Of a DNA stretch of 64,000 nt, positions 6,740-37,145 are shown piece by piece. A program made the position numbers and the translations under genes. The stretch's first letter is position 1; every line of letters begins with the position of its first letter. Source of the stretch: an uncultured Clostridia bacterium (GTDB taxonomy: Bacteria > Bacillota > Clostridia > TANB77 > UBA1234). The stretch covers positions 75,689-139,688 of the forward strand of contig CAKPEF010000002.1 of the NCBI GenBank assembly GCA_934149305.1, given 5' to 3'. The notes beneath the pieces were generated by a model that ran no database searches, was not told the origin of the DNA, and was given only the letters and a program-made list of their open reading frames with translations.

Positions 6740-8333
6740 ATGTCTAAAAAACGTATTATTATTTGGTTAATTATTGGTATTATATTTTCTATTGGAATTT
6801 CAATAATGCTATATGTATTCATTCCTAAAAAATTAAAGATAAATATTAAACTTCCAAAAGAATTTGAATTTGAAATATCAAATTTTGATAATTATGTTCT
6901 TATAGAAAGTGATGAACTAACTATACACTATTCAGAAGATAGGTCTCCATATGAAGATACTTTTTGGTATATAGATTATTATCAAAATAGGTTTTATACG
7001 AATGAAGACTATTTAAAAGAAAATAATATAACCTTACACGAAAATAGAATAGCTTCAATCAATCGGTAATAAAACATCAATTTTATCACTTACAAAACAC
7101 TATGAAAATTTAGATGATACTACATATACTTATGTTTTTATTCAAACTGATGGGCAAAACTACACAAGGTTTATGTTTAAAACAACTATGAATTATGATG
7201 AAAGGTATGTAAAACTTTATGAGGATATAATAAATTCATATTCTGCTAGCAAGAAAGACACATTAAGAACAACGGCGATATATTATTCTAATAAAGTTAT
7301 GAGGAAGATATTTCATAAAAATGAATTCTTCAAGGCATACCAAACTGAAAAACTAGACTTAAAGCCGATTGCAAATCCAAACTGGGATGAAAAAACAAAA
7401 GAACTTTACCAAAAGTTTTTGAGCTCTAATAAAATCACATGGGGAATATTCACAGTAAATGATGTTGAAAAGGCTATGAGTGAGAAAGTACCAGATATAG
7501 AAGAAAAGTTAGATTATAAATTTGATATTATACTTGTTTATAATCACCTTGGAAATCCACTTCAGGTAGAAGAAATGAAGAAAATACATGAAGAAAATAG
7601 AATAATAGAGCTTACAGTTCAAACTTGTGTAAATAACAATACAAGATTATTTGGATATACGCCTATTTTTGATATATTAGATGGAAAAAAAGATGAGCAA
7701 ATTCGCACACTTGCAAAAGAGATAAAAGAATTTGGAAATCCGGTCTTGTTTAGATTAAATAATGAAATGAATACAGATTGGACAAGCTATTCTGGAATAA
7801 TTGCGCTTAGCGATTCAACTATTTATAAAGATGTATGGAAATATATATACAACATTTTTGAAGAAGAAAATGTGGCAAATTGCATTTGGATTTATAATCC
7901 AAACGACAACAATTATCCACCATCTATATGGAATAACTTTTTGTGCTATTATCCAGGTAACGAATATGTGCAAATGCTTGGTATTACGGGATATAACACT
8001 GGAACATATTATGAAAAACAAAATGCAGAACGCTTTAGAGAATTTAAAGAAATATATGATGATATAAATGGAAAGTATAAAGATATATTTAGTAAGTTTC
8101 CTTGGATTATCACAGAGTTTGCATCTAGCTCAATTGGTGGTGACAAAGCAAAATGGATAGAGAATATGTTTAAAAATATTGAGAATTACCCTAATATAAA
8201 AGCAGCAGTTTGGTTTAGCAATGCCGATTACGACCCAGCATATGAAAACAATACAAAAGTTTCAAGACCTTATTGGTTAGATGAAACAGATGAAACCATA
8301 GAAGCATTTAAAAAAGGAATACATAAAGACTAA
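6740..8333 (+). CDS. membrane-anchored GH26-like glycoside hydrolase. The N-terminal signal-anchor segment (6740-7063) is joined to the catalytic domain (7173-8333) across an in-frame CGG at 7064-7066 followed by a +1 frame
   Basis: GH26 motifs RLNNEMN and ITEFA are present. Frame 0 from 7065 to 7172 has no stop codon. The N-terminal TM segment would supply the otherwise missing export signal. Confidence 0.55.
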
Positions 8334-8551
8334 TAAAAAGGCCCGTATTATTTATTTGATGCAGTTTTTTTAATATAAAATAAATTATGTGAAGATTTTG
8401 TGAATTTTAGCACTCGACACTTGACAGTGCTAAAATTAGAGTTATAATAAAAAATGTAAAAAGTTGAAAGACTTATTACAACAATCAAATTAAATATGTG
8501 CTACTTTAAGTTAAGAGTGTCAACACATAAAAATAAAAAGGAGAGATTTAT

Positions 8552-8974
8552 ATGATGATGATACCAAGAAGAAATGATTTTGATGTGATAGGAGATATGT
8601 TTAGAGATCCATTTTTCACTGAACATGAAACAAGAGTTATGAAGACAGATATTAGAGAAAATAAAGATAATTATTTAATAGATATTGACTTGCCAGGATA
8701 TAGCAAAGACAATATTAAAATATCAGTAGAAGATGGTTATTTAACAGTACAAGCTTCAATTGATTCAAATCATGAAGAAAAAGAACATGGAAAATTTGTC
8801 AGAAGAGAAAGATATACAGGCAGTTGTTCAAGAAGCTTTTATGTAGGCGATGAAGTAAAGAGTGAGGATATAAAAGCATCATTTAAAAATGGTATATTAT
8901 GCTTAGCAGTACCAAAGAAAGAAGAAACAAAGAAATTGCCAGAAAAGAAATATGTAGAAATTATAGAAGAATAA
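8552..8974 (+). CDS. Hsp20 / alpha-crystallin small heat shock protein
   Basis: The alpha-crystallin domain is recognisable (DNYLIDIDLPGYSKDNIKISVEDGYLTV ... GILCLAVPK). Confidence 0.85.
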   Translation: MMMIPRRNDFDVIGDMFRDPFFTEHETRVMKTDIRENKDNYLIDIDLPGYSKDNIKISVEDGYLTVQASIDSNHEEKEHGKFVRRERYTGSCSRSFYVGDEVKSEDIKASFKNGILCLAVPKKEETKKLPEKKYVEIIEE

Positions 8975-10924: not shown

Positions 10925-11170
10925 ATATGCTACAAACATGTAGCTTAAGCTTAAGTGTGCTCCATAAAAAATACTGAATACAACCATTATAAAGGTAGTA
11001 TAAACTGCTTTGTAAAAAATGCAAAATAGCTACAATCATGTAGAGGAGCACAGTGTGCTCCATAAAAAATACTGAATACAACCATTATAAAGGTAGTAAA
11101 AACTGCTTTGTAAAAAAATGCAAAATAGCTACAATCATGTAGAGGAGCTTAGGTGTGCTCCATAAAACCC
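10925..11170 (+). repeat. tandem array (3 units, ~110 bp period) of the dispersed GGAGC-hairpin intergenic repeat
   Basis: The unit ...aaaatgcaaaatagctacaatcatgtagaggagc(acag/ttag)gtgtgctccataaaaaatactgaatacaaccattataaaggtagta... is repeated. Confidence 0.8.
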
Positions 11171-11237: not shown

Positions 11238-11960
11238 ATGAAAATAGGGTTAATTTCAGATGTACATGGCAATATTTTAGCACTTGAAAAAGTATTTGAA
11301 AAATTCGATGAAATAGGTGTCGATGCGGTACTATGTGCAGGAGATATTATTGGATTAGGTCCATTCCCAGAAGAGGTTGTACAATTTCTGAAAAACAAGA
11401 AAAATATATATCAAGTTAGAGGAAACCATGAAGGATACTTATTAGATGGTATACCAAAAATAATTCATGGGAGACCGATGAATGATACAGAAACCAATCA
11501 TCATAGATGGCAACATAGTAGACTAAGCGAAGATTCGATAAACTTTTTAAAAACGCTTCCTAAAGTTCAAAATCTAGAATTTAATGGTAAGAAAATTTAT
11601 ATGACACATTATCCAATAAGCAAATTTGGAATATATAAAAACTTTATTAGAGAGCCAACACTAGAAGAAAGTCAAAAACTTTTAGAAGAGGTAGATGCAG
11701 ATATTTGTATTTATGGGCATACACATATTTTTAGCAAAAATATTGATGATAAAAAGATGTATATAAATCTAGGTGCAACGGGATGTCCGGCAGATAACAT
11801 TTTTGCAAATGCTGGTATAATAAATATAAGTGGTGGAAATGTGGAATATTCACCAATAAAAATAGAGTATGATGTGCAAAGTGTAATAGAAGAAATAAGA
11901 AAGCTTAAGTATCCATTCTATGAAAGTGTAATACATATTTTTTATGGCGAAAAGGAGTAA
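11238..11960 (+). CDS. calcineurin-like metallophosphoesterase
   Basis: DVHGN, GD, GNHE and GHTH motifs. Confidence 0.75.
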   Translation: MKIGLISDVHGNILALEKVFEKFDEIGVDAVLCAGDIIGLGPFPEEVVQFLKNKKNIYQVRGNHEGYLLDGIPKIIHGRPMNDTETNHHRWQHSRLSEDSINFLKTLPKVQNLEFNGKKIYMTHYPISKFGIYKNFIREPTLEESQKLLEEVDADICIYGHTHIFSKNIDDKKMYINLGATGCPADNIFANAGIINISGGNVEYSPIKIEYDVQSVIEEIRKLKYPFYESVIHIFYGEKE

Positions 11961-11964
11961 TTAA

Positions 11965-12879
11965 ATGCAAGACAGATACAATCATCTAAACAAATATTTA
12001 AAAAACAAATTTGGAGAAAGAGTCTTGAAAATATGCATAGATGGTGGTTTTACATGCCCAAATCGTGACGGAAAATGCGGTTATGGCGGATGCATTTTTT
12101 GTGGTAGCTTTGGTAGTGGTGAACATTTAAATGCAAAAGAAAGCATAAGTAATCAAGTAAAAAATCATCTTAATTCGTATAGAGGTGAAAGAGCAAATAA
12201 ATTTATAGCGTATTTTCAAAACTTTACAAATACATATGATGACATAGGGGTATTAAAGCAAAAATATGATGCTGCACTAATAGATGAAAGAGTGATAGGA
12301 CTAGAAATTGCCACAAGGCCAGATTGCATAGATGAAAAAATAGCAAAATTATTGCATGAATATAAAGAAAAATATTATGTGGTAGTAGAACTTGGACTAC
12401 AAACATCAAACGATAAAACAGGTAAATTGATAAACAGAGGATACGACAGTGTCACTTTTACAAATGCAGTGAGTATTTTAAATAAATACGATATCGATGT
12501 GATAACTCACATAATGGTAGGCTTGCCTGGCGAAAGCAAAGAAGATTTACTAAACACAGCGAATTTTATAAATAAACATGAAATTCAAGGAGTAAAAATA
12601 CATTCAACATATATTATAAAAAATACTAAATTAGAAGAAATGTTTAAAATGGGAGAATACAAACCATTAGAACTAGAAGAATATATAAATCTTGCATGTT
12701 TTGTAATCGCTAATTTAAATCCAAAGTTTATTATACATAGAATATCTGGTGATGCACCGAAAGATATGCTTGTTGCTCCAAGTTGGAACTTACATAAAAA
12801 ATGGATAATGAATGGAATAGAAAAAAAGCTAATAGAGGAAGATATTTATCAGGGAAAATATTATAATAAAAATCAATAA
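11965..12879 (+). CDS. radical SAM protein, TIGR01212 (YhcC-like) family
   Basis: CPNRDGKCGYGGCIFC cluster and family-typical length. Confidence 0.7.
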   Translation: MQDRYNHLNKYLKNKFGERVLKICIDGGFTCPNRDGKCGYGGCIFCGSFGSGEHLNAKESISNQVKNHLNSYRGERANKFIAYFQNFTNTYDDIGVLKQKYDAALIDERVIGLEIATRPDCIDEKIAKLLHEYKEKYYVVVELGLQTSNDKTGKLINRGYDSVTFTNAVSILNKYDIDVITHIMVGLPGESKEDLLNTANFINKHEIQGVKIHSTYIIKNTKLEEMFKMGEYKPLELEEYINLACFVIANLNPKFIIHRISGDAPKDMLVAPSWNLHKKWIMNGIEKKLIEEDIYQGKYYNKNQ

Positions 12880-12920
12880 GTGGAGAATAAAACAATACAC
12901 TACATAAAAGGAGGAATCTT

Positions 12921-13556
12921 ATGGACTTTGTATTTACATTTTTAGAAGGTATAGCGAGTTTTATATCGCCGTGTTTACTGCCAATGCTACCGATATATAT
13001 ATCATATTTTGCTGGTGATGATAAAAACAATTTAAAGAAAAAAGTAATAAATTCGATTGGCTTTGTACTTGGCTTCACTACAATATTTATTACACTCGCA
13101 GTATTCGCAAGTGGATTTGGTGCGCTTATAAATTCTAATATAAAATATATAAAGATTTTATTTGGAATTATGATAATTATTTTTGGGCTAAACTATATAG
13201 AGATTATAAATATAAAATTTTTAAATAAATCAAAAGGTATAAAATCCGAAACTAAAAATCTAAATTTTATAAAATCATTTATATTTGGTGTAATGTTTTC
13301 AATAAGTTGGACACCTTGTATAGGAATGTTTCTAAGTAGTGCATTATTACTAATAGCAAAACATAGTGATATGCTAAAAGGAATACTTCTAATGTTAACA
13401 TACTCATTGGGACTTGCAATACCATTTATATTATCTGTATTTTTAATAGAAGCATTAAAAAACGCCTTTAATACAATAAAAAAACATTATAAAATAGTAA
13501 AAATAATATCAGGAATTATACTAATAGCAATGGGAATATATACAATATTTTGGTAG
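12921..13556 (+). CDS. ccdA: CcdA/DsbD-family cytochrome c-type biogenesis / thiol-disulfide transfer membrane protein
   Basis: ISPCLLPMLPIYISY motif and polytopic membrane profile. Confidence 0.7.
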   Translation: MDFVFTFLEGIASFISPCLLPMLPIYISYFAGDDKNNLKKKVINSIGFVLGFTTIFITLAVFASGFGALINSNIKYIKILFGIMIIIFGLNYIEIINIKFLNKSKGIKSETKNLNFIKSFIFGVMFSISWTPCIGMFLSSALLLIAKHSDMLKGILLMLTYSLGLAIPFILSVFLIEALKNAFNTIKKHYKIVKIISGIILIAMGIYTIFW

Positions 13557-13576
13557 TAACAATAAAATATGTTGTA

Positions 13577-13612
13577 AAAAATGTAGCTTAAGCTTAGGTG
13601 TGCTCCATAAAA
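13577..13612 (+). repeat. single copy of the GGAGC-hairpin intergenic repeat
   Basis: tgtagcttaagcttaggtgtgctccataaaagc. Confidence 0.7.
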
Positions 13613-13655
13613 GCAATTGATGGCAGTACACAAAAATAAATAAAAGGAGATTTTT

Positions 13656-14117
13656 ATGAGTGAAAAAAAACAATTGATAATACTAATACTAGTGGTAGTC
13701 TCGATATTTGTGGTATCGAGCGTTGTATTAAAAACAAATGATGATATGGAAATAAAAAAAGAAATAATGGAGTCAGGAGATATAAAAGAAACCGACGGAG
13801 AAGTAAAACATATATCTTCAAATGAATTTGAAAGTGAAGTTTTAAAATCTGAAAACGTAGTTTTAGTAGATTTTTATGCCACATGGTGTGGACCGTGCAA
13901 AACAGTTGCACCAATACTAGAAGAAATAGCAAAAGAAGATAGAAAAATAAAGATAGTAAAAGTTGATGTGGATGAATCAGAAGACATATCAGCAGAGTAT
14001 AATGTAATGTACATTCCAACATTAGTAATCATAAAAGATGGTGAAGAAGTAGATAGAATAGTAGGAGCAGCAAAAAAAGCTGAAATTCAAAAAATGATTG
14101 AAATACATTGTAAATAA
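13656..14117 (+). CDS. membrane-anchored thioredoxin-family protein (extracytoplasmic, likely partner of CcdA)
   Basis: N-terminal TM helix and a WCGPC active site. Confidence 0.75.
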
Positions 14118-14816: not shown

Positions 14817-16007
14817 TTATTTTGTAAAGGCATATTCGCCTAAGAATAAAATCTCACCAGAAACTTCGTCTCTGATAAAATAAGTAAAAGGTCTATTAGC
14901 TTTAAACTCTTTTATTTCCTCAGGCATTGGCAATGAATTCTTTGTCATTAAAATAACTGTTGCGGCAGCAGCCTCGGTGCCATTCTCGTCTACCTCAATA
15001 AATGTTTTATGGATAACATCAGATATGTGTGCTTCTACATTATCAAACATATTAGAAAAGTCTGCAGCATTTGTAAAAGCAATATTTATTCCCATTTGTT
15101 TTAAAACATCAACAAAACTTTTTGTAAATTCTGTTCTAAACTTTGGCATACTTACAGAAACTTTTTTGTATTCCATTTTGCTGATAATATCATTTATATC
15201 AACATCTTTATCATCATCATTAAGTAAAATGTACATCGCAATATCTCTGCCAGAGTAATTCATTTTAAGCATTTGAACTCCATCATTTTCATAATATCCA
15301 AAGTGTTTTGTTTGGTTCATAAAATCAATTTCAGATTTGTTTCCGTTTCTATCTGTAAAAGTATCCTTTTTAGTATTTGCTGTGTCAAACTGATTTTCAA
15401 AAGAACCTTTAAAATAAATAGTGTTAACAAGTGCAGATAAAAAGCCTGCAGGCCTTTCTGCTGGCAAGACATTAGTTATTTTATTGTTCGTTTCTTTAGC
15501 AATGAAATCATTGATTTTACTAGCGATGATGTCGGCATTTTCTTCCATTGCAACACCTTTGTAAAAATCAGAAATTATTTTTTTGTAAGTATCTTTAAAA
15601 TTAGCACCCATTGCCTCAGTTTTGTTTAACCAAATAGAATTAGCAACATTTAAATTAACATCCTTATTAGAATTATATCTAGTAATAATATCGTTTGCTT
15701 TTTGATTGTATTCATCAATGCTAGAAACACCAAGAGCGCTTAAAATCTCTTTTTGAGTGTAACCATTTGCACCGTTTGCAGCCATCATCATGGCCATTTT
15801 AATACTAAAAGGTGAAATCATATAGTTTTGGTCTTTAGGCATATATTTCATAAAATCAAAATCACTCTCATATGAAGAAGAAATCTCATAACTCATATCA
15901 CCAGAATAAATATCACCAGAACTTGGCTTAATGACATCAGTATCACCTTTCATTGTGCAACCTCCTAACATAAATAAACTAACTAAAATACTAAGTGCTT
16001 TAATCAT
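14817..16007 (-). CDS. serpin (serine protease inhibitor) lipoprotein
   Basis: Lipobox LGGC. Serpin hinge GTEAAAAT of the reactive-centre loop and a conserved C-terminal region. Confidence 0.75.
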   Translation of the reverse strand: MIKALSILVSLFMLGGCTMKGDTDVIKPSSGDIYSGDMSYEISSSYESDFDFMKYMPKDQNYMISPFSIKMAMMMAANGANGYTQKEILSALGVSSIDEYNQKANDIITRYNSNKDVNLNVANSIWLNKTEAMGANFKDTYKKIISDFYKGVAMEENADIIASKINDFIAKETNNKITNVLPAERPAGFLSALVNTIYFKGSFENQFDTANTKKDTFTDRNGNKSEIDFMNQTKHFGYYENDGVQMLKMNYSGRDIAMYILLNDDDKDVDINDIISKMEYKKVSVSMPKFRTEFTKSFVDVLKQMGINIAFTNAADFSNMFDNVEAHISDVIHKTFIEVDENGTEAAAATVILMTKNSLPMPEEIKEFKANRPFTYFIRDEVSGEILFLGEYAFTK

Positions 16008-16239
16008 AAAAAAACCTCCTTAAAAATAGCTTATATAAATTGGACAACTAAAAAAATGTAAAGTCTCGACTTTTAATAATACAAAAACTCTAAACATACT
16101 TAAAGTATAACATAGTGTTTACAAGAAAAGAAGAATAATATAAAATTATAAATAATAAAGTCACAAGAGATATAAATTGGCTGAAAAATATATCAATGCA
16201 AAATAATGGAAAGTAATTTAAAACGCAATTAGTAATAGT

Positions 16240-16475
16240 GGCACATGAAATGTAGCGGAGCACAGCGTGCTCCATAAAAGTATGTCGGCACCAACATGAT
16301 GAAACACAGTTTAAACCAATACCACAATTAGTAATAATGGCACACAAAAAGTAGCGGAGCTTAAGTGTGCTCCATAGAAAATATGTTGGCGACAATATAA
16401 CAAAACACAAATTCCACAATTGATAATAGGACACATAAAATGTAGCGGAGCTTAGGTGTGCTCCATAAAAAAGAG
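16240..16475 (+). repeat. tandem triplet (~73-bp period) of the GGAGC-hairpin repeat, immediately upstream of 16494
   Basis: Three units ...ccacaattagtaata.tggcacaNaaaa.gtagcggagc....gtgtgctccataaaa... Confidence 0.85.
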
Positions 16476-16493
16476 AAAAGGGGGGGAAGTTTA

Positions 16494-17345
16494 ATGGAAA
16501 TAAATGATGCAGATTCAAATCAAAATAATGAATTAGGTATAAATAATATAATAATACTTAAACCATATGAGCCAACAAATTATCGAAGGATAGTAAATGT
16601 TGTTTCTGATATTGGGTACAAGACTTTTTTCATTATCGCAATTATTGCACTGATTTGTACGATTAGAAGACATGAAAAAAATAAGAAAAATGAGGAAGCC
16701 AAAAAAAGCATAACACGAGGAGTTGTTCTTACAATAATATTTTTTATAATTTCAATTTTTGTATGGCTTGTCCATGTAGCAACAGAGTGTCTTACTGAAA
16801 AACCAATAATCTATCTATATCCAGAAGAAGAAACCAATATAGAAGTAAAATTAGGCAAGAAAGAAAATATAACATGTTCGTATCCAAAGTATGAAAACGG
16901 ATGGAAGGTTGTAGCAAATCCAAACGGAGATTTAAAATACATAGAAAATGGTAAAAACTTATATGCCCTATATTATGAAGCAAAGACAGAAAAAGAAAAT
17001 AAAGTAGAAAAAGAGGGCTTTGTAGTAAAAGGCGAAGATAGTGCCAATTTCTTAGAAGAAAAACTTGAAATATTAGGACTAAATGAAAGAGAGTCTGAAG
17101 AATTTATAGTATACTGGCTACCAAAGCTAGAAGCAAATAAATATAACTACATAAGATTTTTAAACAAAGAAGAAATAGAAGAAAACATGCCACTAGAAAT
17201 AGAGCCAAAACCAGATACACAAATAAGAGTTTTAATGACATTTAAGGGACTAAATAAAGAAATAAAAGTAGAAGAACAACAATTAACAAGAGTAGAAAGA
17301 AAAGGATATACAGTAGTAGAATGGGGCGGAAGCGAAATAAAATAA
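16494..17345 (+). CDS. hypothetical membrane-anchored protein (paralog A1). The C-terminal ~190 aa are identical to the 19414 product
   Basis: Start moved to the ATG after the RBS AAAAGGGGGGG; the track extension MLHKKEK lies inside the repeat. Two N-terminal TM helices. Confidence 0.6.
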   Translation: MEINDADSNQNNELGINNIIILKPYEPTNYRRIVNVVSDIGYKTFFIIAIIALICTIRRHEKNKKNEEAKKSITRGVVLTIIFFIISIFVWLVHVATECLTEKPIIYLYPEEETNIEVKLGKKENITCSYPKYENGWKVVANPNGDLKYIENGKNLYALYYEAKTEKENKVEKEGFVVKGEDSANFLEEKLEILGLNERESEEFIVYWLPKLEANKYNYIRFLNKEEIEENMPLEIEPKPDTQIRVLMTFKGLNKEIKVEEQQLTRVERKGYTVVEWGGSEIK

Positions 17346-17367
17346 AAAATAAAATAGGGGGAAAAAC

Positions 17368-17775
17368 ATGGAACTAAAAGCAGTGAAAAATGAAACTAAA
17401 AAAGAATATTTAACTAAAAAAGAGCAATATCAAAAAATAAAAAACAAAGCTGGAAAGATAGGAATAAGTACAACATTGATGTTTTTGGCAAGCAAGACAA
17501 GTTATGCGGTGGAAGGGGACCCTATGAGACTTGATGGTGCTTTACCTTATGAGCCACCAGTATATCTTAGAATTACGGGTCTTATTAGATGGGGATTTAT
17601 ATTTGCAGGAATAATTTCGTTAATTATAACTTTAACAATAGCTATAATAAATAGAAAAAAAGAAGATGTGAAGAAGAAAATAAAAAAAGGCTTAATAATT
17701 ACTGTTGCACTTTTCGGAATGAGTATTATATTGCAGATAGTTTATACTTTATTAGAGAAAAATATGTATTATTAG
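17368..17775 (+). CDS. small membrane protein, family B (conserved leader MELKAVKNETKKEYLTKKEQYQKIKNKAGKIGI..., variable body, two TM helices)
   Basis: Three paralogs in the window share the first ~45 aa and then diverge. Confidence 0.55.
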   Translation: MELKAVKNETKKEYLTKKEQYQKIKNKAGKIGISTTLMFLASKTSYAVEGDPMRLDGALPYEPPVYLRITGLIRWGFIFAGIISLIITLTIAIINRKKEDVKKKIKKGLIITVALFGMSIILQIVYTLLEKNMYY

Positions 17776-17961
17776 AAAATCAATTACAATCCAAGATTTA
17801 GTATTCCTGCTAGACCAAACTTTAAGTTTCAGAAAATATTTAATTTAAAAAAGTTAATACATTTGATTTTTGAAAATGATATAAAAAATACCTTATAGCC
17901 CATACAAAATAAATGTATATATAGTTATAAATTAAAAAATAAAAGGGGAGTAGATGTAATA

Positions 17962-18246
17962 ATGTATGAAGGATATGGAATAATCGAACCAGTAGATGAT
18001 ATGGTAGAACATAATTGCAAAGTACAAAGTATTGAAAAAATTTTTAGCATTGTAAGTAATAGTCTTTTTATAATATTCATCATAACAATGATTTTAACGA
18101 TTATAAGAGATATTAAAAACAAAAAGAGACCAGATGGTGAAAAAAGAAATTTTATAATTGACATTATTCTTGTAGTTTCATGCATAATATGTTTTTGCAC
18201 TGCAATTTTATGTTTTTGGCTTGCAAATGTATACGAGTGTAATTGA
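17962..18246 (+). CDS. hypothetical small membrane protein
   Basis: ORF preceded by an RBS; hydrophobic. Confidence 0.35.
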   Translation: MYEGYGIIEPVDDMVEHNCKVQSIEKIFSIVSNSLFIIFIITMILTIIRDIKNKKRPDGEKRNFIIDIILVVSCIICFCTAILCFWLANVYECN

Positions 18247-18445
18247 ATGTGGATTTATATTTGCAGGAATAATTTCGTTAATTATAACTTTAACAATAGC
18301 TATAATAAATAGAAAAAAAGAAGATGTGAAAAAGAAAATCAAAAAAGGCTTAATAATTACTGTTGTACTTTGGGGAATGGCAGTTATATTAGGAATAGCA
18401 ATTAATTTACTAAAAAATAAAATAGGGGGAAAAACATGGAACTAA
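18221..18445 (+). pseudogene. truncated remnant of a family-B gene (matches the 3-prime half of 17368-17775, lacks the leader)
   Basis: Identical from ggatttatatttgcaggaataatttcg onward; upstream sequence is unrelated. Confidence 0.5.
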
Positions 18446-19071
18446 AAGCAGTGAAAAATGAAACTAAAAAAGAATATTTAACTAGAAAAGAGCACTATCA
18501 AAAAATAAAAAACAAAGCTGGAAAAATAGGAATAGGCACAATATTGATGTTTATGGCAAGTAACATAAGTTATGCATTGCCAGGAGATGGTATAGATATT
18601 GCAGGTATTGCACCTATTTATACGACACCTGTATGGGTTAAGATTGTTGGTCTTGCTCAATGGATATTGATGTTTGTAGGAATAATTTTTTTGGTTGTAA
18701 ACTCTATAAAATTCATAGTAAACAGAGAGAAAGAAGACGCTGATAAAAAATTAAATCGTAATTTAATAGTAACAATATTATTATTTTCAATAGCATATTT
18801 TTTAAAAATAGTTGAGATGTGTTGTACAAATGGTAAAATGTACGGACCTAATTGCATTGAGTATGGACAGATGCATATTCATTATAGTCCTATTTATATT
18901 CTTTTGCAAAATATCATCGACATGCTTATACTCATAGCTTCTAGCGCTTTTGTAACAATGGTTTTAAAAAGTATAGTAAGAAAAAAAGCATATATAGTCG
19001 ATGCAGTAGAAATAATAATATTGTTTGTGTTAGCGGCTATTATTGGATGGGTAGTCCCATTTATACAATAG
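18436..19071 (+). CDS. family-B small membrane protein with an extended C-terminal region (paralog B2)
   Basis: Shares the MELKAVKNETKKEYLTRKEHYQKIKNKAGKIGIG leader. Confidence 0.55.
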   Translation: MELKAVKNETKKEYLTRKEHYQKIKNKAGKIGIGTILMFMASNISYALPGDGIDIAGIAPIYTTPVWVKIVGLAQWILMFVGIIFLVVNSIKFIVNREKEDADKKLNRNLIVTILLFSIAYFLKIVEMCCTNGKMYGPNCIEYGQMHIHYSPIYILLQNIIDMLILIASSAFVTMVLKSIVRKKAYIVDAVEIIILFVLAAIIGWVVPFIQ

Positions 19072-19169
19072 TATAAATACAGTTTAAGTTTGTTTAGGAA
19101 AGAATAACATTAACATATAAGCATATCGAAATGACTGTAAAAACACCACAATTGGTAATAGGGCACATA

Positions 19170-19395
19170 AAAATGTAGCGGAGCACAGCGTGCTCCATAA
19201 AAGTATGTCGGCACCAACATGATGAAACACAGTTTAAACCAACACCACAATTAGTAATAGTGGCACACAAAAAGTAGCGGAGCTTAAGTGTGCTCCATAG
19301 AAAATATGTTGGCGACAATATAACAAAACACAAATTCCACAATTGATAATAGGACACATAAAATATAGCGGAGCTTAGGTGTGCTCCATAAAAAA
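19170..19395 (+). repeat. tandem triplet of the GGAGC-hairpin repeat upstream of 19414
   Basis: Nearly identical to the 16240-16475 array. Confidence 0.85.
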
Positions 19396-19413
19396 GAAAA
19401 AGGGGGAATCTTA

Positions 19414-20277
19414 ATGGAAATAAATGAGGCAGATTTAAATCAAAAAAATGAATTAGATATAAATAATATAACGATAGCTGAAATACCTAAAGCAACCAAT
19501 TATCGAAGGATAATAAATATTGTTTCTAATATTGGATGCAATATTTTTTTCATTATTGCAATTATTGCACTGATTCTCACAATTAAGAGACATATAAAAA
19601 ATAAAAAAAATGAAGAAAAAAAGAGCATAGTACTTGGAATTGTTTTAACAGTAATATTTTTTTGTGTTTCACTAGTAGCGTGGGTGGTATATTTAGAAAC
19701 CAATTGGATAAATTATTCGCAAGCGGTTAAAAAACCAATAATCTACCTGTATCCAGAAGAAGAAACCAATATAGAAGTAAAGTTAGGCAAGAAAGAAAAT
19801 ATAACATGCTCGTATCCAAAGTATGAAAACGGATGGAAGGTTGTAGCAAATCCAAACGGAGATTTAAAATACATAGAAAATGGTAAAAACTTATATGCCC
19901 TATATTATGAAGCAAAGACAGAAAAAGAAAATAAAGTAGAAAAAGAGGGCTTTGTAGTAAAAGGCGAAGATAGTGCCAATTTCTTAGAAGAAAAACTTGA
20001 AATATTAGGACTAAATGAAAGAGAGTCTGAAGAATTTATAGTATACTGGCTACCAAAGCTAGAAGCAAATAAATATAACTACATAAGATTTTTAAACAAA
20101 GAAGAAATAGAAGAAAACATGCCACTAGAAATAGAGCCAAAACCAGATACACAAATAAGAGTTTTAATGACATTTAAGGGACTAAATAAAGAAATAAAAG
20201 TAGAAGAACAACAATTAACAAGAGTAGAAAGAAAAGGATATACAGTAGTAGAATGGGGCGGAAGCGAAATAAAATAA
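19414..20277 (+). CDS. hypothetical membrane-anchored protein (paralog A2)
   Basis: C-terminal domain identical to A1; N-terminal TM region diverged. Confidence 0.6.
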   Translation: MEINEADLNQKNELDINNITIAEIPKATNYRRIINIVSNIGCNIFFIIAIIALILTIKRHIKNKKNEEKKSIVLGIVLTVIFFCVSLVAWVVYLETNWINYSQAVKKPIIYLYPEEETNIEVKLGKKENITCSYPKYENGWKVVANPNGDLKYIENGKNLYALYYEAKTEKENKVEKEGFVVKGEDSANFLEEKLEILGLNERESEEFIVYWLPKLEANKYNYIRFLNKEEIEENMPLEIEPKPDTQIRVLMTFKGLNKEIKVEEQQLTRVERKGYTVVEWGGSEIK

Positions 20278-20299
20278 AAAATAAAATAGGGGGAAAAAC

Positions 20300-20710
20300 A
20301 TGGAACTAAAAGCAGTGAAAAATGAAACTAAAAAAGAATATTTAACTAAAAAAGAGCAATATCAAAAAATAAAAAACAAAGCCGGAAAAATAGGAATAGG
20401 CACAATGTTGATGTTCTTGGCAAGTGGGACAAGTTATGCATTGCCAGTAGATGTTACAAATATTACGCCGCTCGCAGGTGCTATGCCTATTGGTATGCCA
20501 CCTGCATGGTTTAGAGTTACCCATTGGTTATTAAGATTGGCAGGAATAATTTCTTTGATTATAACATTAATAGAAGTTATAGCGAGTTACATGCAAGAAG
20601 ATGCAAAAAAGAAAATCAAGAAAGATATAATAATCACAGTTGTCATCTTTGTGGTGGTTGTCATATTTGACATAGTATGTGCTTTATTAAAAAATCAAAT
20701 GTGGTGGTAA
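20300..20710 (+). CDS. family-B small membrane protein (paralog B3)
   Basis: Conserved leader followed by a variable body. Confidence 0.55.
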   Translation: MELKAVKNETKKEYLTKKEQYQKIKNKAGKIGIGTMLMFLASGTSYALPVDVTNITPLAGAMPIGMPPAWFRVTHWLLRLAGIISLIITLIEVIASYMQEDAKKKIKKDIIITVVIFVVVVIFDIVCALLKNQMWW

Positions 20711-20713
20711 ATT

Positions 20714-21805
20714 ATGAATTATACATTATATTTAACAGAAAAATGCAACTTGAATTGCAAGTACTGCTTTGAGGGGACAAAAGGTGAAAATGAACTTACT
20801 TTTGAAGATGTAAAAACAATAATGGATAGAGAGGTAGAGCTCGGCAGCAAAAATTGCATCTTAACTTTATTTGGAGGAGAGCCTCTTTTAAAAAAAGATT
20901 TGATTTTTGATATTGTAAATTATGCTAAAAAACTAGAAAAAGAAAATAAGATTAGATTTAAATATAGTATTACAACAAATGGAACTCTTATAGATGAAGC
21001 TTTTTTAAAACTTGCAAAGGAAAATGATTTTTTAATAGGTTATAGTTTAGATGGTGAAAAAGAAACGCAAAATAAAAACAGAATAAATTATAACGGCGAC
21101 GGAACATATGATGTGGTATTTGAAAATGCAAAAAAATTATTAAAGAATGTTAAAACGGTTGTAGCGATGCCTGTTATAACTAAAAATAATTATACAGATA
21201 TGACAAAGAATGTTGAACATCTTTTTGATATAGGTTTTAAAGCTGTAAATTGTGCGTTCGATTATATCGCAGACTGGCAAGATGATGATTTGCCAATATT
21301 AAAAAATGAATATACTAAACTTGCAGATATCTATTATCAGAGACTAAAAAAAGGAGAAAAATTATATCTTCAACCATTTGATAATAAAATATCAGACTAT
21401 ATAAAAGAGCAAGATTGCAATGAAAAATGCATGTTAGGCTTAAAACATGTGGATGTATCGAGCTATAAAAAAATATATCCATGTACTCAATTTGTTGGAA
21501 GAGAAGAATATGAAATTGGAAACATAGAAACAGGAATAGACAAATCAAAAAGAGAAAATTTGATAAAAAAATTACAAACAGATGGAAACGATATTTGCAA
21601 AGAATGTGAAATAAAAAAGCGTTGCAAGCACACATGCGGATGCTTAAATATATTAACCACTGGAGACCCGAAAGAAGTATCACCACTAATATGTGAGACA
21701 GAAAGAATGATAATAGAAATATCAGACAAACTTGCAGAAAGGCTGTATAAAGAAAAGGTGCAAACCTTTTATGAAAAAGAATATTTAGGATATGAAATAA
21801 TTTAG
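20714..21805 (+). CDS. radical SAM enzyme with a C-terminal SPASM/twitch Cys cluster (anSME / peptide-maturase family)
   Basis: CNLNCKYC radical SAM motif at the N-terminus; C-terminal CKECEIKKRCKHTCGC cluster. Start is 4 nt after the B3 stop. Confidence 0.7.
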   Translation: MNYTLYLTEKCNLNCKYCFEGTKGENELTFEDVKTIMDREVELGSKNCILTLFGGEPLLKKDLIFDIVNYAKKLEKENKIRFKYSITTNGTLIDEAFLKLAKENDFLIGYSLDGEKETQNKNRINYNGDGTYDVVFENAKKLLKNVKTVVAMPVITKNNYTDMTKNVEHLFDIGFKAVNCAFDYIADWQDDDLPILKNEYTKLADIYYQRLKKGEKLYLQPFDNKISDYIKEQDCNEKCMLGLKHVDVSSYKKIYPCTQFVGREEYEIGNIETGIDKSKRENLIKKLQTDGNDICKECEIKKRCKHTCGCLNILTTGDPKEVSPLICETERMIIEISDKLAERLYKEKVQTFYEKEYLGYEII

Positions 21806-21965
21806 TAACCAGATATAAAATTCTTCATAAAATATTTATATAAATATTTTATGGAGAATTTTTATAGTTTGTCAGCAGATTGTGCAAGAATACATACCCC
21901 CTATTGATTTATAGGCGTTTTTGTAGTATACTTTTAGCATATTATGGCAGAGAAGGGGTAATTAT

Positions 21966-24359
21966 ATGGAATATAATCACATAGAAATAGAGAAAAAATG
22001 GCAAAAATATTGGGAAGATAATAAAACATTTAAAACAGATGCTTGGGATTTTTCTAAACCCAAGTATTATGCATTAGACATGTTTCCTTATCCATCAGGT
22101 GTAGGTCTTCATGCTGGTCACCCAGAGGGATATACTGCAACTGATATTGTTTCTCGTATGAAGAGAATGCAGGGCTTCAATGTTTTACACCCAATGGGAT
22201 TTGATTCATTTGGACTTCCGGCAGAACAATACGCAATTGATACAGGTAACAATCCTAATACATTCACATTAGAAAATATTGAAACTTTCAGAACTCAGCT
22301 TAAGAAACTTGGCTTTAGTTATGATTGGGATAGAGAAATAATGACTAGTGATCCAAGCTATTATAAATGGACACAATGGATTTTCAAAAGACTTGTAGAA
22401 GATGGTCTTGCTAGATGTGTGGAAATGCCTGTTAACTGGTGTGAAGAGCTTGGCACAGTTCTTGCCAATGATGAGGTAATCGATGGCAAGAGTGAAAGAG
22501 GCGGTTTTCCAGTTGTTCGTAAAAATATGAAACAATGGATAATAGATATTCCTAAATATGCAGAGAGATTGTTAGATGGTCTTGAAGAGATAGATTGGCC
22601 TCTTTCAACAAAAGAAATTCAAAGAAATTGGATTGGTAAGAGCGTAGGAGCACATGTTAAATTTAAAGTTGATGGAACCGCAAAAGATTTCACAGTATTC
22701 ACAACTAGATGTGATACACTTTTTGGTGCGACATATTGTGTGCTTTCACCAGAACATGAGCTAATAGATGAGATTACAACACTTGAGCAAAAAGATGCTG
22801 TAAAAAAATATAAAGAAGAATGTGCAAAGAAATCTGAAATCGAGAGAACAGAATTAAACAAAGAAAAAACAGGTGTATTCACAGGCAGTTATGCTATAAA
22901 TCCTGTTAACGGCGAAAAAATTCCAATATGGATAAGCGATTATGTTTTGGTTACATATGGAACTGGTGCAATAATGGCTGTTCCAGCACATGATGAAAGA
23001 GACTATGCATTTGCTAAGAAATTTGATTTAAAAATCATTCCTGTAATAGAGGGCGGAGACATTGAAAAAGAAGCATACACAGGCGATGGAGTTCATATAA
23101 ACTCAGGATTTTTAAACGGCTTAAATAAAGAAGAAAGTATAGAAAAAATGATTGCTTGGCTTGAAGAAAATAAGCTTGGAGCAAAGAAAATAAATTACAA
23201 AATTCGTGAATGGATTTTCGCAAGACAAAGATATTGGGGAGAGCCAATGCCTGTTGTACATATGGAGGATGGCGATATAGTTTGTTTAAGTGATGACGAG
23301 CTTCCACTTATTTTGCCAAACATATCAGATTACAAGAGCCACAATGGTGAACCACCACTTTGCAATGCAAAAGATTGGGTAGAAGTTTCTATAAATGGCA
23401 AAAAAGGCAAGAGAGACACAAATACAATGCCAGGAAGTGCAGGTTCTAGCTGGTATTTCTTAAGATACATAGACCCACATAACGATAAAGAATTGGCAGA
23501 TAAAAAACTTATGGAACATTGGATGCCAGTTGATTTATATATTGGTGGTCCAGAGCACGCAGTAGGTCATTTACTATATTCTAGAATGTGGAACAATTAT
23601 TTATTTGATAAAGGAATTGTTCCCGTTAAAGAGCCATTTAAAAAGCTTGTACACCAAGGAATGATACTTGGAGCAAATGGAATAAAAATGGGTAAAAGAT
23701 ATCCTAAATATTGCGTAAATCCACTTGATGTTATTAGAGATTATGGTGCTGACACGCTTAGAATTTATGAAATGTTTATGGGACCTCTTGCAGCTGATAA
23801 GCCTTGGAACGACAGAGGAGTTGAGGGCGCTCATAAATTCTTAGACAGAGTATTTAGAATATTTGCAGACGGAAAAGTAAAAGATGTAGAAAACAAAAAT
23901 CTTGAAAAAATTTATCATCAAACAGTTAAAAAAGTTACAGATGATTATGAAAAATTATCATTCAATACTGCAATTAGCCAAATGATGATATTTATAAATG
24001 CAGTATATAAAGAAGATGTTTTACCAAAAGAATATGCAGAAGGATTTGTAAAATTACTAAATCCAATTTGCCCATTTATAACAGAAGAATTATGGGAGAT
24101 GCTTGGTCATACTGGCACAATTACTTACGAGCCATGGCCAAAATATGATGAAGAAAAAACAATAGAAGATGAAATAGAAGTTCCAGTTCAAGTAAACGGA
24201 AAACTTAGAGGAACAGTTATTGTAGCAAAAGAGGCTACTAGTGAAGATGTTGAAAAGGTAGCATTTGAAAACGAAGAAATCTTAAAATTTATAGAAGGAA
24301 AAGAAGTCGTTAAAAAAATATATGTACCAGGAAGAATCTTCACAGTTGTAGTAAAATAA
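21966..24359 (+). CDS. leuS: leucine--tRNA ligase
   Basis: [17 protein letters not shown]-terminus, PYPSGxGLHAGH motif, ~800 aa. Confidence 0.9.
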
Positions 24360-28854: not shown

Positions 28855-31800
28855 ATGTTTAGTTTAACAGAGCCACAAAAGAATGTAATTGAAACGGATC
28901 AATTTTTTAAAAACACTTCAATTTCAAATATTGGAGGTTATTCGAGATTTTTAGACAGAGTAGATTTGGAACTAATGAAAAAAGCCATAAATAAATTAAT
29001 CGAAAATGCAGATGGGCTAAGACTTAGGCTAAAAAATGATAATGGTGAAATAAGTCAGTATATAGAGCCTTACAGAGAAGAAAAAATTGAGATTATTAAA
29101 TTGGATGGAGAAAACCCTATGGTCCAAAGCGAGAAATGGATGAGAAAACCATTTGGCTTTACATCTAAATTGTATGACTTTAAATTGGTTGAATTAGATG
29201 GCGAAGAAGGAATTTTCATAAAACTACATCATGCAATATCTGATGCATGGTCTATGGCAATTGTTTATTCGAAGGTTCTTATGTATTACGAGGCTTTGTT
29301 AAACGGAGAAGAAATACAAAATGATATACCTTCATATACTTTATTTTTAGAGAGTGAAAAAGAATATTTTAACTCAAAAAACTATGAAAGAGATGAAGAA
29401 TATTGGAATGAAAAATATAATGAAAAACCAACTTTTGTTTCACTTGCAAGTAAAAAAGGAGTAATAAGCGTAGCAGCTTCAAGAAAATCATTTATTATAT
29501 CAAAAGAAGAAAAGAAAGTAATAGAAGACTTTTGCACAGAAAATGGGATTTCTATGGCAGTATTTTTTGAAGCAGTTGTTTCTTTGTATGCTTCGAGAAC
29601 TAATAATGCTGATGATATTACACTTTGTACGATAGGTGTAAATAGATCAGGAAAAACCGAAAAGAAAATAGTAGGTATGTTTAATAATATTTTACCAATG
29701 ACAGTTAAAATTGATTGGAATTCGGATTTTAAAAATTTATGTAATAGCATTACAAAGGCACATTTTGAAATCTTTAGACATCAAAAATATCCGTACCAAA
29801 AAATAATGCATGCTATTAGCGAAAAACACGGAAGTTCTAATATTTATGATATAATGGTATCTTTTCAAAATGCAAAATATGATGAAAATATAAAAACAAA
29901 ATACAAAACAGAATGGATTTTTAATGGTTGTGCAGAACTTAGCTTTATGATGAATATAGCTGATATGGAAGGTGCGGGCGTATTAGATGTAAATATAGAT
30001 TATAAAGATGAAGCATTCACGGAAAATGAAATAGAGAAAATATATGCAAGACTTATGCATATAGTACAGCAAGTAATAAGGAAAAAAGAAATATCATTTA
30101 AAGATATAGAGGTTGTTACTGATGATGAGAAATTAGAAATATTGAAAAAATTTAATGATACTAAAAAAGATTATCCAAAAGAAAAGAGAATATATGACTT
30201 TTTAGAAGAGAATGTTATGAAATTTCCTCAAAAAGATGCATTATATTTTGAGGAAAATAAGATGTCATATTGTGAGTTTAATCAAAAAGTAAATTCACTT
30301 GCAAACTATATCATAAGCAAAAATGTAAAGCATAATTCAATAATAGGAATTATGCAAGAACGTTCATTTGAAATGCTTATAAGTATTTATGCAGCATTAA
30401 AAGCTGGCTGTGCATATATGCCTATGGACCCACATTTTCCAAACGATAGAATAGAATTCATGTTAGAAGATAGTGAAGCACCTATTGTTCTTACTAATTC
30501 AAAATGGTTGGACAAGTTAACGATGGCAAAAGAATGCGTGGAAGTAGATAAGTTTGATTATGAAAAATATTCAAAAGAAAATCCTAAAATAGATGTATCT
30601 TCAAAAGATGTGGCATATGTAATTTATACATCAGGTTCTACTGGAAAACCAAAAGGTGCGCAAATACAACATCATAGTGCAATAAACAGAATAAAATGGA
30701 TGCATGAACATTATCCTCTTTTGAAAGATGATGTAATACTTCAAAAAACCCCATATACTTTTGATGTGTCAGTATGGGAACTATTTTGGTGGAGCATGTA
30801 TGGCGGTAGCTTGAAAATACTTATACCAGAAGGACACAAGGATCCATTAGAAATAATAAATGCAATAGAAGATAAAAATGTAACACATATGCATTTTGTA
30901 CCATCTATGTTAATGGCATTTTTACAGTATATAAAAATAAATAAGAATCAAATTTCAAGATTAAAAACATTAAAATATGTTTTTGCAAGTGGTGAGGCTC
31001 TTCAAAGTGAACACGTAAAAGATTTTTATAACTTGCTAGGTCAAAATGGAACAATACTTATAAATTTGTATGGACCAACTGAATGTACGGTTGATGTTTC
31101 GTGTTATGAATGTCCTAAAGAAAACATACCAAGTATAATTCCGATAGGCAAGCCTATTGATAACACACAACTTTTGATATTAGATAAAGCTAATAAATTG
31201 TTGCCAGTCGGTGTTGCAGGAGAACTTATAATAAGTGGTGTGTTAGTAGGAAAAGGATACATAAAAAGAGATGAACTAACAAACGAAAAATTTATAAAGA
31301 ATGAATATTATGACTCTGAAAAAATGTATAAAACAGGTGACTTAGCAAGATGGCTTCCTGATGGAAACATTGAATACTTAGGAAGAATAGATAATCAAAT
31401 TAAAATTAGAGGTTTAAGAGTTGAACTTGGTGACATAGAAAATACTATACTTAAATATGCTTCTATAGCTGAAACTGTTGTTACAGTGTTCGAAAACATG
31501 GGAGAAAAATACTTGTGTGCATACTTTACAGCAACCGAAGAAATAGCAATACCAAAACTAAAAGAAGAGCTATCAAAAGAATTACCGGACTATATGGTAC
31601 CAACATATTATGTGCAATTGGACAAAATGCCATTAAATCATAATGGAAAAATAGATAGAAAAGCTTTACCAAAGCCAGATACAAATATCGAAGAAAAATA
31701 TATTGCACCTCAAAACGAGTTAGAAAAGAAATTACAAGAATGTGCCGAAAGAGCTTTAAAGAGAAAAAATATAAGCGTTGAGAGTGATTTGCTTTTATCT

Positions 31801-35974: not shown

Positions 35975-36010
35975 TGCAAAATGTAGCGGAGCACAGTGTG
36001 CTCCATAAAA
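35975..36010 (+). repeat. copy of the GGAGC-hairpin repeat (perfect GGAGCAC-AGT-GTGCTCC palindrome variant)
   Basis: aaaatgtagcggagcacagtgtgctccataaaaatac. Confidence 0.75.
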
Positions 36011-37104: not shown

Positions 37105-37145
37105 TAAAAATGTCGAGGAGCTTAGGTGTGCTCCATAAAAAATTA
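37105..37145 (+). repeat. copy of the GGAGC-hairpin repeat
   Basis: aaaaatgtcgaggagcttaggtgtgctccataaaaaatt. Confidence 0.75.

Follow-up and report, generated by a model that had tools for sequence, protein, structure and literature searches.

Maturases of the radical S-adenosylmethionine (SAM)/SPASM class have been studied mostly on small, soluble, Cys-rich peptides, to which they bind through a RiPP recognition element (RRE) domain (RiPP, a peptide made by ribosomes and then modified post-translationally). Larger exported proteins can also be substrates of such chemistry: anSME, the anaerobic sulfatase maturase, modifies full-size sulfatases bearing signal peptides in the cytoplasm before export, and the radical SAM/SPASM enzyme QhpD crosslinks the leader-bearing subunit QhpC, the γ-subunit of quinohemoprotein amine dehydrogenase, before export. 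Here we analyse a locus in a 64,000-nucleotide (nt) stretch (the window) of contig CAKPEF010000002.1 from an uncultured Clostridia bacterium, in which the gene for a radical SAM/SPASM enzyme lies directly behind duplicated genes for two kinds of protein, termed A and B. B proteins begin with a conserved N-terminal tag ahead of a signal-peptide-like segment, and genes for tag-bearing proteins adjoin those of related enzymes in many lineages. We read the locus as encoding a radical SAM/SPASM maturase together with its leader-bearing substrate, with a fair chance of a new chemistry and a new mode of recognition. The searchable literature returned nothing relevant on a SPASM enzyme with signal-peptide, lipoprotein or transmembrane (TM) partners, or on TIGR04133, TIGR04134 or PF27331.

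The enzyme and its described relatives

The enzyme falls within the radical SAM superfamily (PF04055, E = 8.7e-21; 75 bits against a cutoff of 29.5). Its CX3CX2C motif (C11, C15 and C18) is invariant in 37 aligned clade members, all of which begin directly at this motif. SPASM domains are marked by a C-terminal motif of seven Cys that serve two auxiliary [4Fe-4S] clusters. Eight Cys residues of this region (239, 257, 295, 298, 304, 308, 310 and 327) are likewise invariant in these 37 sequences and correspond, in alignments, to the SPASM regions of CteB and anSME. Pfam's own SPASM model is not reported for the window enzyme and is faint or present in some homologues.

Neither Pfam-A nor NCBIfam covers this enzyme clade above threshold. 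The best NCBIfam match is a full-length one to PapB (NF047865) at 230 bits, below the cutoff of 340, with homologues of the enzyme scoring 203–221 bits against the same model; the SCIFF maturase model TIGR03974 gives 160 bits (cutoff 425), QhpD, as third-best match, 157 bits, and the anaerobic sulfatase maturase model TIGR03942 111 bits (cutoff 349). Among solved structures, the SCIFF maturase CteB (5wgg) matches best (E = 1e-40), and the anSME structure 4k37 matches at E = 6e-21. Because the alignment with CteB begins only at CteB residue 101, the enzyme lacks the N-terminal RRE; in PapB, this domain spans residues 1–86 (PMC12715619). The clade is the RRE-less neighbour of the SCIFF maturases.

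A preliminary description of the locus had placed a radical SAM enzyme with a SPASM-type Cys cluster 4 nt behind the last B gene, an assignment that the eight invariant residues bear out, the gap being 3 nt. It had also named what would speak against its reading, namely an enzyme that clusters with sulfatase maturases and B homologues that never accompany it. The opposite was found, with PapB and SCIFF scoring above anSME and B homologues co-occurring with the enzyme; no sulfatases were seen among the scanned open reading frames (ORFs) of the 64-kb window. The hidden Markov model (HMM) searches that it had proposed place the enzyme nearest to PapB and SCIFF maturases, and leave both A and B without an above-threshold family.

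The SCIFF system (CteA/CteB; TIGR03973/TIGR03974) provides the nearest solved structure and is the next clade out; 47 of the loci that the motifs of the window clade retrieved belong to it. It shares with the window locus a substrate gene directly beside the maturase. In addition, leaders of SCIFF peptides open with M[KE]xIKT[LI] and close with GG, resembling the start of the tag and the G-G motif that follows later. By contrast, the window enzyme lacks the RRE domain of ~100 residues, and its putative substrates have no six-Cys core, are 90–300 amino acids (aa) long, and carry a signal-peptide or lipoprotein signal together with TM helices or a folded domain. The maturases of the PapB/ranthipeptide (freyrasin) family share the combination of a radical SAM domain with a twin-cluster SPASM region; however, PapB acts on CX3D/E repeats, whereas B1 contains no Cys at all, and no small Cys-rich ORF of the PapB type (CX3[DE] precursor) is found in 16000–22000. 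The closest functional analogy for the proposal made below is anSME, an RRE-less radical SAM/SPASM enzyme of ~360–370 aa, although the B partners are not sulfatases, have no C/S-x-P-x-R motif and are apparently recognized via a tag that precedes the signal peptide. QhpC differs from B in being Cys-rich and in carrying Cys-Asp/Glu thioethers, and the exporter/peptidase and dehydrogenase genes dedicated to the QhpD system have no counterpart at the window locus. TIGR04133 (‘rSAM_w_lipo’) is another radical SAM/SPASM family, linked by its short name to a lipoprotein partner, but it forms a different clade that is not among the best 25 families for the window enzyme. Prochlorosin-type RiPP loci are alike in logic only: there, too, the leader is constant while the bodies are diversified, and each enzyme is accompanied by several paralogues that recombine with one another, but their enzymes are of the LanM class and their products are small soluble peptides.

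Pairing of the enzyme with tag-bearing proteins

Genomic contexts were retrieved via the A protein, homologues of the enzyme and homologues of B, and by a metagenome scan with the enzyme alignment. In every locus whose enzyme is at least 33% identical to that of the window and whose two flanks are readable, a tag-bearing ORF touches the enzyme gene, and one locus at 31% shows the same arrangement. The pair is present in ~19 lineages, spaced by 0–60 nt or overlapping. Relative to the window enzyme (100%), identities are 100% in L018, 88% in L001–3, 58% in L009/10, 48% in L011/12, 49% in L015/16, 47% in L013/14, 46% in L017, 45% in L019, 33–41% in L020–L026, L028 and L033, and 31% in L029; the GC fraction of the paired loci ranges from 0.26 to 0.59. 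The partner lies upstream of the enzyme gene in some lineages and downstream of or overlapping it in others, so the link is not mere inherited synteny. In protein searches, enzyme and B clusters also returned the same ‘longest contig’ values in at least 12 cases (for example 18538, 35170, 28740, 9081, 58963 and 49480). Several B paralogues per enzyme recur, with three in L015 and two identical copies in L017, and the surrounding genes are housekeeping genes (LeuRS, TrpRS, ribosomal L19, TrmD, RecG, PriA and GatC). A putative precursor with a conserved leader beside its putative modifying enzyme, the arrangement by which RiPP loci are recognized, is thus present over ~19 lineages, as the comparison of neighbourhoods in relatives suggested by the preliminary description confirms. 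The RiPP-like logic proposed there stands in this respect, but the partners are membrane proteins or lipoproteins rather than small Cys-rich cores, which brings the system nearer to protein maturation.

Beyond the clade, 47 loci with enzymes at or below 33% identity carry a canonical SCIFF peptide (…GGCGECQTSCQSACKTSC) upstream in place of the tag protein; the boundary of the clade is therefore sharp, with SCIFF maturases as its neighbours. The SCIFF motif was not found in window-type loci. The SCIFF precursors (L038, L044–L100; 47 loci) lie ~500 nt upstream of the enzyme match, and their leaders start M[KE][HR]I[KQ]T[LI] and end in GG. The likeness of this leader to the tag start (ME[IL][KR]P[VI]K) and to the later G-G motif hints that the tag may have evolved from a SCIFF-type leader. 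A scan of species-representative genomes with the enzyme gave no close relatives and only two distant loci, in a Treponema and in a Prevotella metagenome-assembled genome, neither with a B-like neighbour; the Treponema enzyme is 32% identical and has no tag-bearing neighbour.

An exhaustive single-sequence search with B1 finds only 8 representatives, whereas a profile search finds 106 clusters, all of them unnamed and devoid of Pfam domains. B proteins begin with the motif ME[ILF][KR]x[VI]..E….Y(P)K, followed by a basic stretch, often with IPxKW, and then by K[IVM]G[IL] and a hydrophobic segment that ends in a small-x-small site, typically with A at -1. Behind this segment come a linker of 8–25 residues, an h-x-G-[GA] motif and a Pro-rich stretch; the C-terminal part consists of two TM helices (TM1 and TM2) joined by a Lys-rich loop, and its last residues are often YY, WW or MW. 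Nearly invariant positions are M1, E2, V6, Y14, K18, K27, K30, A47 and G57. An h-x-G-x motif behind the signal segment is present in 43 of 48 members, whereas 500 shuffles gave 24 on average and 32 at most. The bodies obey the positive-inside rule, as resident membrane proteins do. Cys is lacking after residue 50 in 13 of 36 non-redundant members, B1 included. The thioether chemistry of PapB, CteB and QhpD can therefore not be general in this family. A PqqA-like E-X3-Y target in B1 was considered and dropped, as it is not kept in B2 or B3.

Only the N-terminal tag is common to all partners. It comprises ~15–35 residues with the consensus ME[IL][KR]x[VI]…x-Y-P-K, or …K-x-Y-x-x-P-x-Y-P… in other lineages, and no tag-bearing ORF other than B1–B3 is found elsewhere in the 64-kb window. 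The bodies behind it have one, two or four TM helices in low-GC lineages and are lipoproteins in L020–L033. These lipoproteins, of ~190–480 aa (typically ~290 aa), start with M-E-[IL]-x-P-[IV]-K-x-Y-K-x-P-x-Y-P, continue with a lipobox (LSGC, LAGC or LTAC) and contain a conserved domain (PLFEHGDGxGxxGCVxVAPPVFLSEEEA … WLKAQGII) that matches nothing in Pfam or NCBIfam; the proteins sharing it in L020 (3076–3942), L021–L024, L028 and L033 are ~190–300 aa long. In L019, the tag and an FVGG motif are kept without a hydrophobic segment between them. Searches of A and B against Pfam and NCBIfam gave only sub-threshold matches reflecting TM composition, and PADLOC and PHROGs none; Foldseek with the AlphaFold2 model of B, whose predicted local distance difference test (pLDDT) score is 64, was uninformative.

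Short B variants with a single TM helix (L015 5001–5481; P0300, P0311, P0313, P0322, P0326 and P0330) stop exactly at the expected start of the Lys-rich loop (…AIRI[CF]N). Another reading frame of L015 (5293–5481) carries on with this loop and TM2, and P0321 is a full-length relative; this suggests either a frameshifted gene or frameshifting.

Mosaic cassettes, A proteins and surrounding sequence

Two mosaic cassettes and a decayed third between them lie 5′ of the single enzyme gene (Table 1). The direct repeats 16248–17097 and 19171–20029 are 82–99% identical in nucleotide sequence (families D3–D5). The A genes, read from their true ATG starts, encode proteins of 283 and 287 aa. The hairpin-repeat triplets at their front are 98% identical, and the C-terminal domains of A1 and A2 agree in 181 of 181 residues, with 4 differences in 546 nt, whereas the N-terminal ~100 residues of these two proteins are only 62% identical. 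The leaders of B1, B2 and B3 (residues 1–47) are 85–94% identical in protein and about 92–94% in nucleotide sequence, the 32 nt upstream included; the bodies behind them, at 37–47% aa identity, keep their architecture. The duplication seen in the preliminary description is thus real, but the ‘near-identical’ cassettes are mosaics; similarly, the B proteins do share a leader, but do not diverge completely behind it. The identical C-terminal domain of A noted there is 181 aa long, not ~190.

Table 1 Features of the locus, with positions in the window
Feature	Coordinates	Strand	Remarks
Serpin gene	14817..16007	-	Divergent neighbour; PF00079, E = 3e-86; context, outside the module of enzyme and B
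Hairpin-repeat triplet 1	16219..16467	+	Three units of 92–99 nt; pattern matches at 16252, 16351 and 16442
A1	16494..17345	+	283 aa; acidic N-terminus, B-like 2-TM module, 181-aa C-terminal domain
B1	17368..17775	+	135 aa; tag, signal-peptide-like segment (…SYA), G motif, 2 TM helices, no Cys; leader HMM E = 9e-20
A' remnant	17962..18246	+	A-type N-terminal 2-TM module without C-terminal domain
B' remnant	18221..18445	+	C-terminal 2-TM part of a B gene, no leader
B2	18436..19071	+	211 aa; same leader, then a longer 4-TM-like body; leader HMM E = 2e-19
Hairpin-repeat triplet 2	19142..19389	+	98% identical to triplet 1; pattern matches at 19175, 19274 and 19370
A2	19414..20277	+	287 aa; same sequence as A1 over the C-terminal 181 aa, 62% identity to it in the N-terminal TM module
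B3	20300..20710	+	136 aa; tag, signal-peptide-like segment, PLAGAMP motif, 2 TM helices, C-terminal MWW; leader HMM E = 8e-20
Radical SAM/SPASM gene	20714..21805	+	363 aa; no N-terminal RRE domain; 3-nt gap after the B3 stop
AT-rich perfect palindrome 3′ of the enzyme gene	21817..21862	.	Inverted repeat I6; 23-nt arms, 96% complementary, no spacer

The middle of the locus holds the remains of the third cassette. A' is 51% identical to the A N-terminus of L001 (E = 1e-16) and matches the B-body HMM at E = 4e-9. B', already described as a B remnant, is confirmed as such by the same HMM (E = 2.7e-15) and by the D2 repeat at 85%; it matches the C-terminal half of a B type of which other strains (P0255) and L001 have intact copies. 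The two remnants overlap by 26 nt in different frames, and the end of A' (…ILCFWLAN) is similar to the h-region of the B leader (…TLMFLASK), with repeat D13 at 18207–18226. This similarity and the overlap suggest that the middle cassette was destroyed by a deletion in which an A TM module became fused to a B gene.

Strains shuffle B bodies under a constant leader (P0241, P0255, P0257 and L018): P0241 combines a B2-like front with the back of B3, and L018, from the same species as the window, has a different set of B genes. Together with the mosaic repeats, this recombination of bodies between strains supports the earlier view of the locus as recombinationally active. Strict co-variation of the TM modules of A and B was considered and dropped, since the B gene behind an identical A1 is a different one in L018. 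In L001, a relative with a single cassette, a gene for an AAA_14/DUF4143 ATPase is inserted between A and B (7243–8559), a Cu/Zn superoxide dismutase gene lies 3′ of the enzyme gene, and no hairpin repeats precede A.

The C-terminal domain of A (16800–17345 and 19732–20277) has more than 7000 homologues, with 60–70% identity across many clusters. The copy of Pfam that was searched holds no model for it, and one homologue carries a precomputed PF27331 assignment. The AlphaFold2 model of A has a pLDDT of 86, mostly above 90 in this domain; a sequence search of the PDB gave 0 matches and Foldseek against the PDB nothing below E = 0.2. A is not found in loci of enzyme and B outside the window's species group and occurs alone elsewhere, and is therefore not part of the conserved module. 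Its earlier inclusion in the cassette as a unit holds for both cassettes of the window, but not for most loci with enzyme and B. In L004–6, A lies 3′ of an alpha-2-macroglobulin gene, and in L101–3 it has no informative neighbours. The domain thus occurs beside protease-inhibitor genes in two contexts, serpin (window, L001/L018) and alpha-2-macroglobulin (L004–6).

The N-terminal TM modules of A resemble B. The B-body HMM matches those of the L001 A protein (9e-11), A' (4e-9), A1 (1e-7) and A2 (4e-6) and nothing else in the window, and BLAST aligns A1 PYEPTNYRRIVNVV with B1 PYEPPVYLRITGLI. In L104 (1227–5690), an integrase-flanked island with ToxN nearby encodes an A-domain protein, a sigma factor of the extracytoplasmic function (ECF) type with a C-terminal TM tail, B-like proteins of 117 and 114 aa (signal peptide and 2 TM helices) and proteins of 124 and 167 aa of no named family. 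Its radical SAM/SPASM enzyme resembles the TIGR04133 family (325 bits, cutoff 425) and shares 28% identity with that of the window; unlike those of the window, the B-like proteins of this TIGR04133-type locus have ordinary short signal peptides and no tag. That A, B-like protein and radical SAM/SPASM enzyme recur as a trio although the enzyme is non-orthologous suggests a joint role of A and B in the membrane.

The chromosomal stretch that carries the locus has a GC content of ~29%; MscL and serpin genes lie on one flank, LeuRS and TrpRS genes on the other, and the serpin gene is in the equivalent position in the relatives L001 and L018. The palindrome behind the enzyme gene may mark the end of the operon; a simple terminator scan did not call it. 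Elsewhere in the window, an operon that is conserved in L018 occupies 11238–14117, 3′ of a hairpin triplet; its products are a phosphoesterase (Metallophos), a further radical SAM protein, of the Radical_SAM_C type, a membrane protein resembling DsbD, and a thioredoxin. At 28855–33066 lies a single-module nonribosomal peptide synthetase with the domain order C-A-T-R (terminal reductase), preceded by a histidine kinase gene and with an HD-domain response regulator gene nearby. We take this to be the architecture of the gut-clostridial synthetases that make peptide aldehydes (protease inhibitors), which is of note given the serpin gene in the same window.

The units of hairpin triplet 1 have the core GTAGCGGAGC-loop-GTGCTCCATA; the two triplets comprise six copies spaced by 92–99 nt (D6). 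A more general core, (A)TGTAG[CA]GGAGC-loop-GTGCTCCATAAAA, is dispersed and not specific to the cassettes, with a third triplet at ~10940–11164, 5′ of the Metallophos/radical SAM/DsbD/thioredoxin operon, and single copies at 35983–36007 (5′ of a TadA-like deaminase gene) and 37117–37136. The repeat triplets first seen in front of each cassette are genuine, but belong to a dispersed genomic hairpin. All copies are intergenic and on the plus strand, and 0 core matches are expected by chance. Within each triplet, the first hairpin consists of a 7-bp stem and a triloop, and the later ones of a 5-bp stem and a UUARGUGU loop; the unit length of 92–99 nt is kept while the sequence between hairpins varies from locus to locus. 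Among 100 fetched loci, only that of the same-species L018 contains the element, with two copies before A1 and none before A2.

Rfam 15 gave no match in the window at the gathering threshold and none at E ≤ 10 in 16000–21900. The hairpins are terminator-like on the minus strand only, and a weak sigma-70-like site precedes the third. A riboswitch or structured leader was dropped as an explanation because the 296-nt leader folds no better than shuffled sequences (z = -0.22) and has no Rfam match; CRISPR-like mini-arrays were dropped because the loops are variable, a single unit in diverged copies makes up the ‘spacers’ and there are no cas genes; and a sigma-54 or sporulation-sigma promoter was dropped for want of a consensus fit. 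We regard the hairpin as a species-specific dispersed repeat, which may contribute to the recombination that built the cassettes.

Proposed maturation before export and competing explanations

The explanation that we favour, with a probability of roughly 0.55, is a tag-addressed maturation of exported proteins by the radical SAM/SPASM enzyme before their export; the bare claim that B and the enzyme form a functional pair deserves much more confidence than this. The core would be a two-component module, consisting of a cytoplasmic enzyme, whose RRE-less clade is sister to the SCIFF/PapB thioether maturases, and at least one substrate B, whose tag is placed directly before a Sec-type or lipoprotein-type signal sequence. 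The enzyme would dock on the tag of nascent or pre-export B and install a radical-mediated modification in the region that immediately follows the signal sequence; the best candidate site is the h-x-G-[GA]…P-rich stretch. B would then be exported, and tag and signal sequence would be removed together by signal peptidase. In this genome, the substrate gene would have been amplified to three intact paralogues and one remnant, with a constant tag and shuffled bodies, so that one enzyme would serve several variable substrates. A would be a lineage-specific companion, a B-like TM hairpin with a conserved external domain, probably acting with B in the membrane.

What suggests the tag as recognition element is its nature as a conserved N-terminal extension on unrelated exported proteins, always beside the gene of a cytoplasmic radical SAM/SPASM enzyme. 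Alternatively, the tag, which contains a nearly invariant Tyr, could be the substrate instead of the address, and the h-x-G-x stretch is a weak candidate for the modified region. Several points weigh against this proposal. The available sequence evidence singles out no target residue, the B family has no conserved Cys, and the enzyme lacks the domain by which leaders are usually bound. In some lipoproteins the G motif is the lipobox (LAGC, LSGC), which makes a core motif shared across body classes insecure, and the AlphaFold2 model of B is of low confidence. The analysis shows the pairing of the genes, a conserved tag, the class of the enzyme and the mosaic nature of the duplication, whereas recognition via the tag, modification ahead of export, its site and its chemistry are inferred. 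Cleavage of the signal peptide is read from sequence only, and all the evidence is gene neighbourhood from metagenome assemblies. Were the hydrophobic segment an uncleaved TM helix, the tag could stay on the mature protein as a permanent cytoplasmic docking or regulatory element.

Competing explanations differ in what they take the B proteins to be. If the rSAM-modified tag or the released signal peptide were itself the product, freed by signal peptidase as a signalling peptide with the body as its carrier, this would account for the tag, nearly invariant Tyr included, as the sole element kept across all body types and for the free exchange of bodies; enterococcal pheromones, which derive from lipoprotein signal peptides, are a precedent. 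However, no conserved cognate receptor, regulator or exporter lies nearby, the window tag (KKEYL) deviates from the YP consensus, and the bodies are conserved within lineages, as a 2-TM architecture or as a lipoprotein domain with an invariant C-terminal WLKAQGII, suggesting that bodies matter. We consider this reading unlikely. Slightly lower still do we rate a bacteriocin/immunity or holin-like polymorphic toxin locus, in which B bodies would become membrane-active after cleavage at the GG-like motif, with A or other B copies as immunity proteins. Polymorphic paralogues shuffled among strains under a constant leader and an enzyme related to RiPP maturases would fit it, as would the resemblance of the I-x-G-G-like motif to double-glycine leaders, which is clearest in L019 with its missing hydrophobic segment. 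Yet in most members this motif follows the signal-peptide-like segment and would thus lie outside the membrane, beyond the reach of a cytoplasmic C39 domain, and the Pfam-annotated contexts contain no C39-peptidase ABC exporter, regulator or dedicated immunity gene. Bodies that obey the positive-inside rule like resident membrane proteins, lipoprotein partners that are folded proteins of ~290 aa, and the empty PADLOC and PHROGs searches with A and B also argue against it.

The preliminary description had offered VirB2/TrbC-like pilin subunits as an alternative. In that case B would be a pilin-like subunit of type IV secretion, its leader a long pilin signal peptide, and the enzyme either unrelated or a decorator of the pilin. 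The architecture, with a leader of 45–55 aa, two TM helices and a basic loop, does fit, and at E ≤ 0.01 seven of 32 members match NF045849 (‘Mbov_0395 family pilin-like conjugal transfer protein’; best E = 8.7e-10) and two of 32 T4SS_pilin (PF18895). But every match is below the curated cutoff (at best 34.8 bits against 40 for NF045849, and 18.9 against 26.6 for PF18895) and falls in Ile/Lys-rich TM hairpins, whose composition inflates scores; B1–B3 of the window do not match these models at 0.01, and Foldseek with the low-confidence B model found no pilin. The same tag also heads soluble lipoproteins, and none of the ~19 contexts, all of them housekeeping neighbourhoods, contains VirB4, VirD4, a relaxase or another type IV secretion gene. 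A pilin is accordingly improbable, a little more so than a toxin, and both readings are poorly supported. Least probable of all, to the point of being very doubtful, is an incidental adjacency, in which the enzyme would be a sulfatase-type or cofactor maturase whose substrate is unlinked, and the cassettes would be no more than membrane-protein genes that were duplicated, or an artefact of assembly. It would be in keeping with anSME being among the matches in both profile and structure searches and with the lack of close relatives in the species-representative genome scan; but the anSME score is far under those of PapB and SCIFF and under its own cutoff, and the two genes stay adjacent down to an enzyme identity of 31%, in either order and over the full GC range. 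Independent assemblies from the same species (L018) show the same organization with different B repertoires, and the diverged segments between the repeats speak against a collapsed or duplicated assembly.

More tentatively than the maturation itself, and at somewhat less than even odds, we propose that the locus represents an unrecognized maturation and sorting system. In it, a cytoplasmic tag ahead of a Sec or lipoprotein signal would recruit an RRE-less radical SAM/SPASM enzyme that would install a non-thioether modification before export; it would extend across low-GC gut lineages and higher-GC lineages, and would here have diversified into polymorphic surface-membrane proteins paired with the widespread A domain. 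That B bodies are shuffled from one strain to another suggests selection acting on the cell surface, be it by phage, host or competitors. If the pairing is enzymatic, radical chemistry on exported proteins of full size would gain a second example after the sulfatases and QhpC, with a new mode of recognition in which tag and signal peptide are removed together; since no Cys is conserved, new chemistry would then be probable. It would also allow a function to be assigned to B (~106 clusters) and to the tagged lipoproteins, which are both unannotated and common in human-gut metagenomes, and the pairing likewise offers a lead on the A domain with its thousands of homologues.

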